The notes under the pieces: generated by a model
The model's input: the letters and a program-made list of their open reading frames with translations, nothing else
What the model was told of the DNA's origin: nothing
The model's database searches: none
In this document: positions 1,084 through 9,914 of the stretch, one piece after another
How positions within the stretch are numbered: position 1 is the stretch's first letter
Layout: each line of letters starts with the position of its first letter
Made by a program: the position numbers and the translations under genes
NCBI RefSeq assembly: GCF_965641715.1
Contig: NZ_OZ282453.1
Source: Escherichia coli
Lineage (GTDB): Bacteria > Pseudomonadota > Gammaproteobacteria > Enterobacterales > Enterobacteriaceae
Direction: 5' to 3' (one strand)
Length of the DNA: 64,000 nucleotides

Positions 1084-2073
1084 ATGAAACTCGCCGTTTA
1101 TAGCACAAAACAGTACGACAAGAAGTACCTGCAACAGGTGAACGAGTCCTTTGGCTTTGAGCTGGAATTTTTTGACTTTCTGCTGACGGAAAAAACCGCT
1201 AAAACTGCCAATGGCTGCGAAGCGGTATGTATTTTCGTAAACGATGACGGCAGCCGCCCGGTGCTGGAAGAGCTGAAAAAGCACGGCGTTAAATATATCG
1301 CCCTGCGCTGTGCCGGTTTCAATAACGTCGACCTTGACGCGGCAAAAGAACTGGGGCTGAAAGTAGTCCGTGTTCCAGCCTATGATCCAGAGGCCGTTGC
1401 TGAACACGCCATCGGTATGATGATGACGCTGAACCGCCGTATTCACCGCGCGTATCAGCGTACCCGTGACGCTAACTTCTCTCTGGAAGGTCTGACCGGC
1501 TTTACTATGTATGGCAAAACGGCAGGCGTTATCGGTACCGGTAAAATCGGTGTGGCGATGCTGCGCATTCTGAAAGGTTTTGGTATGCGTCTGCTGGCGT
1601 TCGATCCGTATCCAAGTGCAGCGGCGCTGGAACTCGGTGTGGAGTATGTCGATCTGCCAACCCTGTTCTCTGAATCTGACGTTATCTCTCTGCACTGCCC
1701 GCTGACACCGGAAAACTACCATCTGTTGAACGAAGCCGCCTTCGATCAGATGAAAAATGGCGTGATGATCGTCAATACCAGTCGCGGTGCATTGATTGAT
1801 TCTCAGGCAGCAATTGAAGCGCTGAAAAATCAGAAAATTGGTTCGTTGGGTATGGACGTGTATGAGAACGAACGCGATCTGTTCTTTGAAGATAAATCCA
1901 ACGACGTAATTCAGGATGACGTATTCCGTCGCCTGTCTGCCTGCCACAACGTGCTGTTTACCGGGCACCAGGCATTCCTGACAGCAGAAGCTCTGACCAG
2001 TATTTCTCAGACTACGCTGCAAAACTTAAGCAATCTGGAAAAAGGTGAAACCTGCCCGAACGAACTGGTTTAA
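1084..2073 (+). CDS. ldhA: D-lactate dehydrogenase (NAD-dependent fermentative)
   Basis: 329 aa ORF MKLAVYSTKQYDKKYLQQVNE... with 2-hydroxyacid dehydrogenase GxGxxG fold (GVIGTGKIG); matches LdhA. Confidence 0.97.
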   Translation: MKLAVYSTKQYDKKYLQQVNESFGFELEFFDFLLTEKTAKTANGCEAVCIFVNDDGSRPVLEELKKHGVKYIALRCAGFNNVDLDAAKELGLKVVRVPAYDPEAVAEHAIGMMMTLNRRIHRAYQRTRDANFSLEGLTGFTMYGKTAGVIGTGKIGVAMLRILKGFGMRLLAFDPYPSAAALELGVEYVDLPTLFSESDVISLHCPLTPENYHLLNEAAFDQMKNGVMIVNTSRGALIDSQAAIEALKNQKIGSLGMDVYENERDLFFEDKSNDVIQDDVFRRLSACHNVLFTGHQAFLTAEALTSISQTTLQNLSNLEKGETCPNELV

Positions 2074-3142: not shown

Positions 3143-6100
3143 ATGATTACTATTGACGGTAATGGTGCGGTTGCTTCGGTGGCGTTTCGCACCAGTGAAG
3201 TTATCGCCATCTACCCTATTACCCCCAGTTCCACGATGGCAGAACAGGCTGATGCCTGGGCCGGAAACGGCTTGAAGAACGTTTGGGGAGACACACCACG
3301 CGTGGTTGAAATGCAGTCGGAAGCGGGTGCTATCGCTACCGTGCATGGCGCTTTGCAGACGGGAGCCCTTTCAACATCGTTTACGTCATCGCAGGGTTTG
3401 CTGCTGATGATCCCGACGCTGTACAAACTGGCAGGCGAACTCACACCGTTTGTCCTGCATGTAGCGGCACGTACCGTTGCCACACATGCACTCTCTATTT
3501 TTGGCGATCATTCCGACGTCATGGCGGTGCGCCAGACGGGTTGCGCGATGTTGTGTGCGGCAAACGTCCAGGAAGCGCAAGACTTTGCTCTCATTTCGCA
3601 CATCGCGACGCTGAAAAGCCGCGTGCCATTTATTCATTTCTTTGATGGTTTCCGTACGTCCCACGAAATCAATAAAATTGTCCCGCTGGCCGATGACACG
3701 ATTCTTGATCTCATGCCGCAGGCCGAAATTGATGCTCATCGCGCCCGGGCGCTCAACCCGGAACATCCGGTGATCCGCGGTACGTCCGCCAATCCTGACA
3801 CTTATTTCCAGTCTCGCGAAGCCACCAACCCATGGTACAACGCGGTCTATGACCATGTTGAACAGGCGATGAATGATTTCTCTGCCGCGACAGGTCGTCA
3901 GTATCAGCCGTTTGAATATTACGGGCATCCGCAAGCGGAACGGGTGATTATCCTGATGGGCTCTGCCATTGGCACCTGTGAAGAAGTGGTTGATGAATTG
4001 CTAACCCGTGGCGAAAAAGTTGGCGTGCTGAAAGTTCGCCTGTACCGTCCCTTCTCCGCCAAACACTTGCTGCAAGCTCTGCCGGGATCCGTACGCAGCG
4101 TGGCGGTACTGGACAGAACCAAAGAACCCGGTGCCCAGGCAGAACCGCTCTATCTGGATGTAATGACCGCACTGGCAGAAGCCTTTAATAATGGCGAGCG
4201 CGAAACTCTGCCCCGTGTCATTGGTGGGCGCTATGGTCTTTCATCCAAAGAATTTGGCCCGGACTGTGTACTGGCGGTATTTGCCGAGCTCAACGCGGCT
4301 AAACCGAAAGCGCGCTTTACGGTTGGTATTTACGATGATGTGACCAATCTGTCACTGCCGTTGCCGGAAAACACCCTGCCAAACTCGGCGAAACTGGAAG
4401 CCTTGTTTTATGGCCTTGGTAGTGATGGCAGCGTTTCCGCGACCAAAAACAATATCAAGATTATCGGTAATTCCACGCCGTGGTACGCACAGGGCTATTT
4501 TGTTTACGACTCCAAAAAGGCGGGCGGCCTGACGGTTTCTCACCTTCGCGTGAGCGAACAGCCGATTCGTTCCGCTTATCTCATTTCCCAGGCTGATTTT
4601 GTTGGCTGCCACCAATTGCAGTTTATCGATAAATATCAGATGGCTGAGCGTTTAAAACCTGGCGGCATTTTCCTGCTCAACACGCCGTACAGCGCAGATG
4701 AAGTGTGGTCGCGCTTGCCGCAGGAAGTTCAGGCCGTGCTAAACCAGAAAAAAGCGCGCTTCTATGTGATTAACGCAGCGAAAATCGCCCGCGAATGTGG
4801 CCTGGCGGCCCGTATTAATACCGTCATGCAGATGGCTTTTTTCCATCTGACGCAAATTCTGCCTGGCGATAGCGCCCTCGCAGAATTGCAGGGTGCGATT
4901 GCCAAAAGTTACAGTAGCAAAGGCCAGGATCTGGTGGAGCGCAACTGGCAGGCTCTGGCGCTGGCGCGTGAATCCGTAGAAGAAGTTCCGTTGCAACCGG
5001 TAAATCCGCACAGCGCCAATCGACCGCCAGTGGTTTCCGATGCCGCCCCTGATTTCGTGAAAACCGTAACCGCTGCGATGCTCGCCGGGCTTGGTGATGC
5101 CCTCCCCGTTTCGGCGCTGCCGCCAGACGGCACCTGGCCGATGGGCACTACACGCTGGGAAAAACGCAATATCGCCGAAGAGATCCCCATCTGGAAAGAG
5201 GAACTCTGTACCCAATGTAACCACTGTGTTGCCGCTTGCCCACACTCAGCTATTCGCGCAAAAGTGGTACAGCCTGAAGCGATGGAAAACGCCCCTGCCA
5301 GCCTGCATTCGCTGGATGTGAAATCGCGTGATATGCGCGGGCAGAAATATGTCTTGCAGGTGGCTCCGGAAGATTGCACCGGTTGTAACCTGTGCGTCGA
5401 AGTTTGCCCGGCGAAAGACCGTCAGAATCCAGAGATTAAAGCCATCAATATGATGTCGCGCCTGGAACATGTCGAAGAAGAGAAAATCAATTACGATTTC
5501 TTCCTCAACCTGCCAGAAATCGACCGTAGCAAACTGGAACGTATTGATATTCGTACATCGCAGCTGATTACACCGCTGTTTGAATATTCAGGTGCTTGCT
5601 CCGGTTGTGGCGAGACGCCGTATATTAAATTGCTGACTCAGCTCTATGGTGACCGGATGTTGATCGCTAACGCCACCGGCTGTTCTTCAATTTATGGCGG
5701 TAACCTGCCCTCTACACCGTATACTACCGATGCCAACGGTCGTGGTCCGGCCTGGGCGAACTCTCTATTTGAAGATAATGCCGAATTTGGCCTTGGTTTC
5801 CGCCTGACGGTCGATCAACACCGTGTCCGCGTGCTGCGTCTGCTGGATCAATTTGCCGATAAAATCCCGGCGGAATTACTGACGGCGTTGAAATCAGACG
5901 CCGCGCCAGAGGTTCGTCGTGAACAGGTTGCAGCTTTACGCCAGCAACTCAATGATGTTGCCGAAGCACATGAACTGCTGCGTGACGCAGATGCACTGGT
6001 GGAAAAATCAATCTGGCTGATTGGTGGCGACGGCTGGGCTTACGATATCGGCTTTGGCGGTCTGGATCATGTATTGAGTTTGACGGAAAACGTCAACATT

Positions 6101-6667
6101 CTGGTGCTGGATACGCAATGCTATTCCAACACCGGTGGTCAGGCGTCGAAAGCGACACCGCTGGGTGCAGTAACTAAATTTGGCGAGCACGGCAAACGTA
6201 AAGCGCGTAAAGATCTTGGCGTCAGTATGATGATGTACGGTCATGTTTATGTGGCGCAGATTTCTCTCGGCGCGCAGCTCAACCAGACGGTGAAAGCGAT
6301 TCAGGAAGCGGAAGCGTATCCGGGGCCATCGCTGATCATCGCTTATAGCCCATGTGAAGAGCATGGTTACGATCTGGCACTCAGCCACGACCAGATGCGC
6401 CAACTCACAGCTACCGGCTTCTGGCCGCTATATCGCTTCGATCCGCGTCGTGCCGATGAAGGCAAACTGCCGCTGGCGCTGGATTCACGCCCGCCGTCAG
6501 AAGCACTGGAAGAAACGTTACTTCACGAGCAACGTTTCCGTCGTCTGAATTCGCAGCAGCCAGAAGTGGCAGAACAGTTATGGAAAGATGCTGCAGCTGA
6601 TTTGCAAAAACGCTATGACTTCCTGGCACAAATGGCCGGAAAAGCGGAAAAAAGCAACACCGATTAA
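3143..6667 (+). CDS. ydbK: Pyruvate:flavodoxin/ferredoxin oxidoreductase
   Basis: 1174 aa ORF with paired 4Fe-4S ferredoxin motifs (CTQCNHCVAACP, CTGCNLCVEVCP) and a TPP-binding region; matches YdbK. Confidence 0.97.
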   Translation: MITIDGNGAVASVAFRTSEVIAIYPITPSSTMAEQADAWAGNGLKNVWGDTPRVVEMQSEAGAIATVHGALQTGALSTSFTSSQGLLLMIPTLYKLAGELTPFVLHVAARTVATHALSIFGDHSDVMAVRQTGCAMLCAANVQEAQDFALISHIATLKSRVPFIHFFDGFRTSHEINKIVPLADDTILDLMPQAEIDAHRARALNPEHPVIRGTSANPDTYFQSREATNPWYNAVYDHVEQAMNDFSAATGRQYQPFEYYGHPQAERVIILMGSAIGTCEEVVDELLTRGEKVGVLKVRLYRPFSAKHLLQALPGSVRSVAVLDRTKEPGAQAEPLYLDVMTALAEAFNNGERETLPRVIGGRYGLSSKEFGPDCVLAVFAELNAAKPKARFTVGIYDDVTNLSLPLPENTLPNSAKLEALFYGLGSDGSVSATKNNIKIIGNSTPWYAQGYFVYDSKKAGGLTVSHLRVSEQPIRSAYLISQADFVGCHQLQFIDKYQMAERLKPGGIFLLNTPYSADEVWSRLPQEVQAVLNQKKARFYVINAAKIARECGLAARINTVMQMAFFHLTQILPGDSALAELQGAIAKSYSSKGQDLVERNWQALALARESVEEVPLQPVNPHSANRPPVVSDAAPDFVKTVTAAMLAGLGDALPVSALPPDGTWPMGTTRWEKRNIAEEIPIWKEELCTQCNHCVAACPHSAIRAKVVQPEAMENAPASLHSLDVKSRDMRGQKYVLQVAPEDCTGCNLCVEVCPAKDRQNPEIKAINMMSRLEHVEEEKINYDFFLNLPEIDRSKLERIDIRTSQLITPLFEYSGACSGCGETPYIKLLTQLYGDRMLIANATGCSSIYGGNLPSTPYTTDANGRGPAWANSLFEDNAEFGLGFRLTVDQHRVRVLRLLDQFADKIPAELLTALKSDAAPEVRREQVAALRQQLNDVAEAHELLRDADALVEKSIWLIGGDGWAYDIGFGGLDHVLSLTENVNILVLDTQCYSNTGGQASKATPLGAVTKFGEHGKRKARKDLGVSMMMYGHVYVAQISLGAQLNQTVKAIQEAEAYPGPSLIIAYSPCEEHGYDLALSHDQMRQLTATGFWPLYRFDPRRADEGKLPLALDSRPPSEALEETLLHEQRFRRLNSQQPEVAEQLWKDAAADLQKRYDFLAQMAGKAEKSNTD

Positions 6668-6702
6668 ATGCTCTGGATAAGGATTATCCAATTCTAAAAA
6701 AA

Positions 6703-6733
6703 AGCCCGGACGACTGTTCGGGCTTGTCTTTTT
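6703..6733 (+). terminator. Rho-independent terminator after ydbK
   Basis: Hairpin agcccgga-cgactgtt-cgggct followed by tgtcttttt. Confidence 0.7.
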
Positions 6734-7032
6734 ATATGTTGGAAAATCAGTGGCAATGCAATGGCCCAACAGAAAATAAAATCTGTGACAATAAAGGCAT
6801 ATAACCCGCGCAGAATAACTCATAGAAAATTAAAAGTATAATTTTTATTTTGTATGTATTATCTTCGATACATTCACCAGACTTATTATCATTTCAGAGG
6901 AATTATTTGATTAAGGTTTTACTTAAGGCGTAACAAATGATATTTATCGGCTAACTGAACTTCTCCTTTAGGATGTTTTCACTCCCCGAAATGGGGATAA
7001 AAGGCAAATAAAATAACTAAAGGATTTATTCA

Positions 7033-8166
7033 ATGAAAAGCAAAGTACTGGCACTTTTAATTCCTGCCCTGCTCGCCGCAGGTGCTGCACATGCAGCCGA
7101 AGTTTATAATAAAGACGGCAACAAATTAGATCTGTATGGCAAAGTTGATGGCCTGCATTATTTTTCTGATAATTCAGCGAAAGATGGCGACCAGAGCTAT
7201 GCGCGTCTGGGTTTTAAAGGCGAAACCCAAATTAACGATCAACTCACTGGCTACGGTCAATGGGAATACAATATTCAGGCAAACAACACTGAATCTTCAA
7301 AAAACCAGTCATGGACCCGTCTGGCATTTGCCGGACTGAAATTTGCAGATTACGGTTCTTTCGATTACGGACGTAATTATGGCGTAATGTACGACATCGA
7401 AGGCTGGACCGATATGCTGCCTGAATTTGGCGGTGACTCTTATACCAATGCAGACAACTTTATGACTGGTCGTGCCAATGGCGTCGCGACTTATCGTAAT
7501 ACTGATTTCTTCGGTCTGGTAAATGGTCTGAACTTCGCGGTGCAGTATCAAGGTAACAACGAAGGTGCCAGTAATGGTCAGGAAGGCACCAACAACGGAC
7601 GTGATGTTCGCCATGAAAACGGTGACGGCTGGGGTCTTTCCACAACATATGATTTAGGCATGGGCTTTAGCGCTGGTGCGGCATACACCTCTTCTGACCG
7701 CACCAATGACTAGGTTAACCATACTGCGGCGGGTGGTGATAAAGCAGACGCGTGGACTGCTGGGCTAAAATACGATGCTAACAATATTTACCTGGCAACC
7801 ATGTATTCAGAAACGCGTAATATGACCCCGTTTGGCGACAGCGATTATGCTGTTGCAAACAAAACCCAGAACTTTGAAGTCACTGCACAGTACCAGTTTG
7901 ATTTTGGTCTGCGTCCGGCAGTCTCTTTCCTGATGTCTAAAGGCCGTGACCTGCACGCTGCCGGTGGTGCAGACAACCCGGCAGGTGTTGATGATAAAGA
8001 TCTGGTTAAATACGCCGATGTTGGCGCGACTTACTATTTCAATAAAAACATGTCCACTTATGTTGACTATAAAATCAACCTGTTGGATGAAGATGACAGT
8101 TTCTACGCTGCCAACGGCATCTCTACCGATGATATTGTCGCTTTAGGTCTGGTTTATCAGTTCTAA
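7033..8166 (+). pseudogene. ompN: Outer membrane porin OmpN interrupted by an in-frame amber codon (TAG at 7711-7713)
   Basis: ORFs 7033..7713 and 7801..8166 are one reading frame; porin signal peptide [21 protein letters not shown] and C-terminal ...LGLVYQF; the frame continues ...[40 protein letters not shown]... across the stop. Confidence 0.8.
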
Positions 8167-8174
8167 ATCCTCCT

Positions 8175-8199
8175 GCCCGCTGTTATGGCGGGCTTTTTC
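8175..8199 (+). terminator. Rho-independent terminator after ompN
   Basis: Hairpin gcccgc-tgttatg-gcgggc followed by ttttt. Confidence 0.75.
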
Positions 8200-8225
8200 T
8201 GCTTATTCTTCCTCCTTTGATCTAA

Positions 8226-8741
<516 letters not shown>

Positions 8742-8748
8742 CACTAAC

Positions 8749-8773
8749 GCCCGCACATTGCTGCGGGCTTTTT
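8749..8773 (+). terminator. Rho-independent terminator after uspF
   Basis: Hairpin gcccgca-cattgc-tgcgggc followed by ttttt. Confidence 0.75.
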
Positions 8774-8916
8774 GATTCATTTCGCAAATGTGCTGACATT
8801 TTCCCCTCTAATCCGTACCATACACGCCACAGTTTTTATATCAGATTTCTTATGCTGGGCGTTCCGGCATGACGCATACTCTTCTGATGCCATATAACGA
8901 ATTGAGTCGCTTTTAA

Positions 8917-8970
8917 ATGTCGCAAAATCAAGAAATTAGCAAGAAAGAACAATACAATCTGAACAAGTAA
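8917..8970 (+). pseudogene. ttcC: ttcA 5' remnant (ttcC-like) left at the int-distal prophage junction
   Basis: Reads [17 protein letters not shown] and shares the 26-bp core aagaaagaacaatacaatctgaacaa (8941..8966) with the ttcA start at 53887..53912. Confidence 0.85.
8941..8966. repeat. att core, int-distal junction
   Basis: Exact 26-bp repeat of 53887..53912. Confidence 0.85.
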
Positions 8971-9067
8971 GGGTAAAAATCACAACTATCTGACGAACAA
9001 TGTTTTTATAATTTTTTCAACATGTTAGACAGGATGAACATCTACAATAAAGCACAATAATCTACAC

Positions 9068-9120
9068 TTTTTTTGCCCCATTTTTGCCCCTTTTACGGCC
9101 TTTTGTCCCATTTTTGCCAC
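9068..9120. repeat. Tandem TTTTTGCCCC-like decamers near the int-distal att (candidate Int arm-type sites)
   Basis: tttttgcccca tttttgcccc ttttacggcc ttttgtccca tttttgccac; related copies lie next to the other att (53819..53840). Confidence 0.5.
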
Positions 9121-9307
9121 AGTAAAAATCTATAACTAATCAATCTGTGATCTGCAATTTGCGCCCATGAATTCTTTCCAATAGAATCAGTTCCGGCTGG
9201 AATCATTAAATACCCCCACAGTCGAAAGTTCCCTAGCCAACTGCCGCCGTTCTTACATATGACGTACTGCGGCTATGTTTTTCAATCTGTAGCTGTGCTG
9301 GTGAATT

Positions 9308-9637
9308 ATGAGCAATCTGAATCCATGCATGACGTGTGGTGCCTGTTGTGCATTTTTCCGCGTCTCTTTTTACTGGGCCGAAGCCGATGATGCTGGCGGT
9401 ACTATCCCTGCAAGGCTCACAGAACAAATATCCCCTTTTCACCGATGTATGAGCGGTACCAATCAGAAAAATCCCCGCTGTGTCGCTCTGGCAGGCACTC
9501 CGGGCAAAAATGCCTGCTGCACAATATATGACAATCGTTCGTCCACATGCAGAGAATTCGCCATGTCTGGTGAGAACGGAGAAGCCAATGAGGCGTGCAA
9601 CAGAGCAAGGGCTAAATATGGGCTGGACCCGCTATAA
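9308..9637 (+). CDS. Cysteine-cluster protein (CxxCxxCC, YkgJ-like putative Zn/Fe-binding domain)
   Basis: 109 aa ORF with CMTCGACC motif and further cysteines; lies just inside the prophage boundary. Confidence 0.5.
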
Positions 9638-9914
9638 ATATACGACAATTGTAAAGCCCGACTGTTGTAACAGTCGGGCTTCATTTATTACAGCTTCTCT
9701 GCTTTTTTATTCTGTGAAACCTGGTTCATCTGGCCACACAATATCCGGTGCTACTGATGTATCAACACGGTTCAGCAACACCCGATACTTTTTCCAGGTT
9801 GTTACCAGACTCACATTCGTTCATTAATATGTCCTGTGATTTGCGTGCGGTGAGGTAGCCTTTTCCCAACCTCACCATCATCCGGCAATTTGTATTTATC
9901 ACAAACGGCCTGTA

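Follow-up and report, generated by a model that had tools for sequence, protein, structure and literature searches.

Is the amber codon inside the ompN gene of this Escherichia coli chromosome a genuine and recent loss of the porin, a stop that the strain suppresses, or a sequencing error? The earlier note on this DNA had put these three readings side by side. We followed them up in the 64-kb stretch analysed here, called the window throughout, and in public assemblies. The evidence makes it very probable that ompN is a genuine, recent loss-of-function allele created by a C-to-T change at 7711, with deamination at a Dcm site as the most likely origin. Nothing about this allele, Q227am, lies outside known biology; it is an ordinary pseudogene of a quiescent porin.

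The ompN reading frame and its locus

The ompN frame opens with ATG at 7033 and closes with TAA at 8164-8166. It comprises 377 sense codons, counting codon 227, which is Gln in intact alleles and TAG, the one internal stop, here. Frame translation found exactly one internal stop, confirming the single in-frame amber that the earlier note had reported at 7711..7713. Its view that the frame is intact on either side of the stop also held, 7711 being the sole non-synonymous difference from the intact allele. The gene divides into these parts:

7033..8166, + strand: ompN pseudogene, 377 codons plus TAA with one amber inside, 99.8% identical to annotated intact ompN
7033..7710, + strand: part of ompN still translated, signal peptide and N-terminal 205 mature residues, 226 aa in total
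7711..7713, + strand: in-frame amber TAG, ancestrally CAG (Gln227), with T at 7711 against C in intact alleles
7714..8163, + strand: in-frame C-terminal ompN remnant, untranslated, 150 codons ending ...GLVYQF

The listing of open reading frames breaks ompN into two pieces of the same frame, 7033..7713 (226 aa) and 7801..8166 (121 aa). The 121-aa fragment, from ATG 7801 to 8166, is what gene callers give for the 3' part of the gene. A functional ompN would read without a break through every barrel strand to the terminal Phe; TAG at codon 227 interrupts the frame here, and ompN is a pseudogene, a non-functional member of its family. It should be annotated as a pseudogene (internal stop, Q227am), neither as two porin fragments nor 'corrected' to an intact gene.

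In thousands of E. coli chromosomes, the gene that RefSeq annotates as 'porin OmpN' matched the window gene at 99.7-99.8% identity over the full 1,134 nt. When the stop was restored to CAG, the protein was identical to WP_000837924.1 and aligned end to end with the porin structures OmpK37 (6v78, the best PDB match, E = 8.6e-180), OmpK36, OmpC and OmpF. The synteny nifJ/ydbK-MicC-ompN-uspF is also kept as in annotated genomes. Because nucleotide identity (99.8%), synteny and full-length similarity to the OmpK37, OmpK36 and OmpC structures agree, the gene at 7033..8166 is confirmed as ompN, encoding a general porin (Pfam Porin_1; OmpC/OmpF/PhoE/OmpK37 family). Its immediate surroundings are:

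3143..6667, + strand: nifJ/ydbK (pyruvate:flavodoxin oxidoreductase), intact, upstream neighbour
6688..6808, - strand: MicC sRNA gene, intact, divergent from ompN (Rfam RF00121, 125.3 bits against a gathering threshold of 90, full model 1-123)
8175..8203, + strand: intrinsic-terminator-like hairpin (8175..8193) and T-run 3' of ompN
8307..8741, + strand: uspF, intact, downstream neighbour

The window as a whole has the gene order of an ordinary E. coli chromosome, ydbH'-ldhA-hslJ-ydbJ-nifJ-micC-ompN-uspF, then a prophage, then ttcA-dbpA-zntB-dgcM-smrA. The prophage is lambdoid, sits at the ttcA (Rac) site and spans about 45 kb, from ~8.97 to 53.85 kb (~8969-53850). It is bounded by a 5' ttcA fragment at ~8918-8968 and by intR with an intact ttcA at ~52.6-54.8 kb. 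It carries a tRNA-Gly(UCC) gene upstream of the lysis genes as well as the Rac-like genes hokD, kilR and recE-type, and is closest to a prophage of pig strain PEC41 (97% identity, 79-97% coverage).

Two small differences lie around micC. A double substitution at 6820-6821, in the divergent micC-ompN control region, reads TC and is private to the lineage of the window and of L008, one of the comparison loci (which carry L numbers here); all seven full-length comparison loci outside that lineage read GT. It lies ~15-16 nt upstream of where micC starts, beside what is presumably the -10 element of that promoter. At the micC 3' end, a one-base length polymorphism at 6695 affects the A-run encoding the U-tail of the MicC terminator, which is one A shorter in the window, L001, L006 and L008 than in L002-L005 and L007.

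Comparison with the intact ompN allele of E. coli TR01 (L001, WP_000837924.1) revealed two differences in 1,134 nt: a synonymous CTC/CTT difference at 7245, and T in the window against C at 7711, giving TAG in place of CAG (Gln). No second lesion was found on either side of the stop in this comparison. Since the stop is accompanied by just one synonymous SNP and no other lesion, inactivation of ompN is young. An exact 61-mer centred on the stop was found in none of the 5,215 complete RefSeq E. coli genomes with the region, 5,214 of which were 95-99% identical to it, i.e. carried 1-2 mismatches. TAG227 is thus a derived, recent and rare allele. The proposal of a recent pseudogene in the earlier note is borne out by one non-synonymous and one synonymous change from an intact allele and no secondary decay. 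The note had also suggested comparing ompN alleles of related strains and had held that CAG in these relatives would count against the amber. Relatives do have CAG (Gln) at codon 227 where the window has TAG, but this expectation was mis-posed, since a recent nonsense mutation leads one to expect CAG in relatives. A public record of the identical truncated product already exists under the name 'porin OmpN, partial' (HGU3803128.1), and our literature search for ompN pseudogenes returned no report specific to Q227am.

Origin and recurrence of the amber codon

The substituted base falls within a recognition site of the Dcm methylase, a point the earlier note had missed. ompN contains two Dcm motifs:

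7710..7714, + strand: mutated Dcm site, CTAGG here and CCAGG in relatives, with 7711 at the inner (5-methyl) C position
7791..7795, + strand: second Dcm motif, intact CCTGG, both deamination outcomes synonymous

Relatives carry the ancestral sequence GACCAGGTT at the site, a match to CCWGG; read in codons, the ancestral GAC CAG GTT includes the Dcm target CCAGG. At 7711 the inner C has become T, turning CCAGG into CTAGG as expected of deamination. The two motifs allow four deamination outcomes, and only C-to-T at 7711 gives a stop; the others are synonymous. CCWGG sites are hotspots for G:C to A:T changes at the methylated base (PMC13250602), and Vsr repairs T:G mismatches in CTWGG/CCWGG (PMC2715241). 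Because of the Dcm context of 7711, deamination of 5-methylcytosine is probably the cause of the change and the likeliest one, though a plain replication-error transition may instead have given rise to the T.

If this lineage has an active Dcm, whose gene, like vsr, lies outside the window, the 5-methylcytosine at 7711 would have turned spontaneously into thymine, leaving a T:G mismatch that escaped very-short-patch repair by Vsr. Replication would then have fixed the T and with it the change of Gln227 from CAG to amber TAG. With the stop in place, translation ends after 226 residues, and the product is expected to fail to assemble in the outer membrane and to be degraded. As OmpN is quiescent and dispensable, such alleles would be expected to arise and persist sporadically.

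We looked up the exact 226-aa product in public protein collections and then inspected the DNA of its carriers. The product occurs on 62 public contigs, an upper bound as some are contig-end artefacts. One carrier, L008 (GCA_965259455.1), matches window positions 4033-9881 without a single difference; these 5,849 nt take in the TAG, the prophage junction and the ttcA fragment. Its contig breaks within prophage DNA, which looks like the mark of an independent short-read assembly. Among the matches listed, TAG227 was also found on four further nifJ-ompN-uspF haplotypes (L003; L004 and L007; L005; L006), separated from one another and from the window by 25-63 SNPs per 4.7 kb. The TAG base alone separates the L003 allele from that of O103 strain RM8385 (L002), which is intact. 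The L004 type was seen at 11 further similar places and is a clone transmitting TAG227.

A single origin followed by spread through recombination was considered and rejected. The carriers differ at 7566 and 7854 (and L006 at 7710 too), so a tract shorter than ~290 bp would have to have moved repeatedly, which is less parsimonious than recurrent mutation. Two apparent carriers, L009 and L010, were discarded as contig ends with C at 7711. Without a look at the DNA, exact-length protein look-ups give too many nonsense alleles, because contigs ending within 1-2 bases of a polymorphic or branching position mimic truncated proteins; loci of this kind were L009, L010, L077-L084, L090-L094 and L098-L104.

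The L006 haplotype reads GAT TAG. A synonymous GAT CAG variant is present in complete genomes, and judging from the codon context the L006 amber probably arose on this background, which is not a Dcm site. In two ambers, both positions of the earlier CC read T, namely in L006 (7710-7711) and in L088, which reads CAT TAG at ldhA codons 295-296. In both, either the amber arose on a pre-existing non-Dcm T variant or the outer C changed later.

As controls within ompN, the exact truncated products of nine other expected transition-type nonsense sites were sought in public assemblies. All nine were present, on 15-175 contigs against 62 for TAG227:

124 aa product: 40 contigs
170 aa product: 27 contigs
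172 aa product: 136 contigs
182 aa product: 22 contigs
199 aa product: 38 contigs
226 aa product (TAG227): 62 contigs
240 aa product: 15 contigs
278 aa product: 114 contigs
285 aa product: 42 contigs
287 aa product: 175 contigs, from an IS insertion and no point mutation

Independent backgrounds were counted as haplotype clusters among the matches listed for each site. Q227 TAG was found on 5 haplotypes among these matches, W125 TAG/TGA on about 7, Q279 TAG on 3, W200 TGA and Q173 TAA on 2 each and Q286 TAG on 1; W200 TAG was found on at least 6. Within ompN, the Dcm site TAG227 is no outlier. Since non-Dcm ompN sites recur on as many haplotypes or more, no special mutation rate is needed for the recurrence of TAG227 at this depth of sampling, and its five haplotypes, which we had considered as proof of a hotspot, were downgraded.

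The same approach was applied to nifJ and ldhA. Dcm-site ambers in nifJ were found on 46 (Q143), 16 (Q332), 0 (Q483) and 1 (Q595) contigs and non-Dcm ambers on 1 (Q131) and 15 (Q193), whilst six other non-Dcm nifJ nonsense sites gave 0 contigs in the public collection. Among the matches listed, nifJ Q143 TAG was real at 10 of 10 places, on ten different haplotypes (L065-L074), and nifJ Q193 was real on 2 haplotypes, the rest being contig ends. Codon 143 lies at 3569-3571 in the window, where nifJ is intact and reads GTC CAG GAA (CCAGG); as a natural amber hotspot at a Dcm site it is far cleaner than ompN Q227. In ldhA, the Dcm-site amber at Q296 was real on 5 haplotypes among the matches listed. 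Gln277 of ldhA had been chosen as a non-Dcm site because of ATT CAG in the window, but all three real amber carriers read ATC TAG, from CCAGG, and it was dropped from the controls. At ldhA codons 276-277 (window 1909-1914), a synonymous ATT/ATC difference in codon 276 makes or breaks the Dcm motif over Gln277.

Across ompN, nifJ and ldhA, Dcm sites had higher haplotype counts than non-Dcm C-to-T nonsense sites (one-sided Mann-Whitney p = 0.015; p = 0.034 leaving out ompN), in a small sample capped at 10 places per site, in which ldhA Q277 was reclassified post hoc. Contig counts showed no Dcm enrichment (p = 0.30). We rejected these as a proxy for mutation rate, since clonal expansion and contig-end artefacts largely determine them; the latter made up most places for the 285-aa ompN, 192-aa nifJ, and 276-aa and 295-aa ldhA products. 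The haplotype counts weakly indicate that Dcm-site ambers recur modestly more than other C-to-T nonsense changes. Public E. coli assemblies are deep enough to show essentially every transition-type nonsense change of dispensable genes, often several times. Because sampling at this depth turns up nearly all nonsense transitions, recurrence alone is no evidence of a hotspot or of selection.

Artefact, suppression and selection as explanations

A change in a Dcm motif is at once the likeliest real transition and the likeliest nanopore artefact, so the amber needed independent support. Nanopore consensus errors cluster in the Dcm motifs CCAGG/CCTGG; with default models, Dcm motifs accounted for ~70% of the errors in ONT consensus sequences (Wick et al. 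2019, PMC6591954). The altered base falls exactly in such a motif, and CTAGG could have been reported where the DNA has CCAGG. Against this, 131 CCWGG motifs are intact in the window. Of the 20 Dcm motifs that a close relative has in the left chromosomal flank, three are altered in the window; two of these (1911 and 3831) are natural polymorphisms found in other strains as well, leaving the ompN site as the sole private Dcm-motif change there. The other chromosomal CTAGG/CCTAG sites, at 9232 and 61098, are kept in relatives. These comparisons, made across the window's intact motifs and motif by motif in the left flank, gave no sign of systematic Dcm-motif miscalls; the right flank was ~97.6% identical to strain 06-00048 by BLAST. 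The identical TAG also occurs in L008, apparently a short-read assembly, and in several other independent assemblies. With the TAG present in L008 and on four other haplotypes and Dcm motifs otherwise called normally, the sequencing error suggested in the earlier note is, on the sequence evidence, very unlikely as the origin of the T at 7711. Suppression is less likely still. An amber suppressor (e.g. a supE-type tRNA-Gln(CUA)) or UAG readthrough could keep ompN functional, as the frame 3' of the stop is fully intact and insertion of Gln would regenerate wild-type OmpN, but the youth of the mutation, with one other SNP, explains the intact downstream frame equally well. The same allele on at least five backgrounds would need a suppressor in each, and amber suppressors are rare in natural isolates. 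ARAGORN found a single tRNA in the 64-kb window, the prophage tRNA-Gly(UCC) (34782-34856, - strand), which has an annotated counterpart in the related PEC41 prophage, and no tRNA with a CUA anticodon within the window. In K-12, the known supE and supF loci lie outside this region. A priori, suppression is very improbable.

Adaptive loss, in which ompN knock-outs are positively selected by phage, colicin, antibiotic or antibody pressure on a surface porin, concerns why the allele persists and is compatible with a recent pseudogene. The frequency of ompN lesions would fit it: all ten truncations tested occur in public assemblies, many on several haplotypes; an IS element in codon 288 is found in both orientations on many haplotypes; and lineages of the O157:H7 EDL933 type and of S. 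flexneri have fixed truncated forms of the gene. However, ldhA, a metabolic neighbour, has nonsense alleles at 7 of 8 tested sites (0-68 contigs, against 15-136 for the point-mutation sites of ompN). Because ldhA shows comparable nonsense saturation, most of the ompN truncation pattern is put down to saturation by sampling depth. TAG227 itself is absent from all 5,215 complete genomes, so there has been no sweep. We consider adaptive loss unlikely. The same holds for a combined reading in which Dcm CAG codons (ompN Q227, nifJ Q143, ldhA Q296 and Q277) are natural amber hotspots, struck repeatedly on unrelated backgrounds, and ompN inactivation is positively selected; if true, loss of OmpN would be a recurrent adaptive step, e.g. 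escape from phage, colicin or immune pressure. The reading we prefer remains a recent pseudogene that arose by point mutation.

The IS insertions merit a separate description. The 287-aa ompN product (175 contigs) reflects an insertion at codon 288, at ~7894-7897 of the window (L019-L028). The element encodes a 402-aa DDE_Tnp_1 transposase and lies in minus orientation in L019 and plus in L020. Many 285-aa ompN 'products' are contigs that end beside it. Codon 288 looks like an IS insertion hotspot.

Consequence for OmpN and comparison with known systems

The 226-aa product ends in ...YTSSDRTND, without the remaining strands and the C-terminal ...VYQF. In the alignment with OmpK37 (6v78), Q227 falls in the SSDRTNDQ segment and the C-terminal LVYQF is conserved. 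Placing codon 227 by OmpF-type porin topology, which we assume applies to OmpN, the truncation point would lie in an external-loop segment, roughly after the ninth of 16 beta-strands. BAM-dependent insertion requires the C-terminal aromatic signal of outer-membrane proteins. Because the C-terminal strands and terminal Phe are missing, we infer a null allele whose product would not assemble in the outer membrane and would be degraded. The intact porin is itself quiescent and hard to detect even with its promoter induced (Dam, Pages and Masi 2017, PMC5745476).

Truncated ompN is found elsewhere too. O157:H7 EDL933 (123 aa; fragment AAG56383.1) and Shigella flexneri 2a (298 aa; strain 301, AAN43388.1) have, like the window, a truncated ompN. 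Each of these truncations occurs on at least 1,000 contigs and is fixed in a major lineage, whereas the 226-aa TAG227 form is sporadic (62 contigs, none of 5,215 genomes). Because truncated alleles are fixed in the O157:H7 EDL933-type and S. flexneri 2a lineages, loss of ompN is evidently tolerated in nature.

A similar case is nmpC (ompD) of E. coli K-12, likewise a minor or quiescent porin gene inactivated in one strain with ompF, ompC and phoE remaining, although there by a C-terminal deletion and here by a point nonsense change (PMC2808357 for nmpC). OmpK37 of Klebsiella pneumoniae (6v78), the nearest solved homologue of OmpN, aligns with it over the full length and is intact, whereas the window ompN cannot make the C-terminal 151 residues.

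The closest mutational parallels come from laboratory genetics. Coulondre, Miller, Farabaugh and Gilbert reportedly described amber hotspots at Dcm sites (CCAGG) of lacI in 1978, and Lieb, cited in PMC2715241, is said to have found such Dcm-site (CCAGG) amber hotspots in the phage lambda cI gene in 1991. These share with ompN the CCAGG site, the C-to-T change at the inner cytosine, presumably methylated in ompN too, the conversion of a CAG Gln codon to TAG and the CTAGG left behind. The lacI and cI hotspots are laboratory mutation frequencies, whereas ompN Q227am is a single natural allele, one that would serve as a clean natural example of the textbook route from CCAGG deamination to an amber codon.
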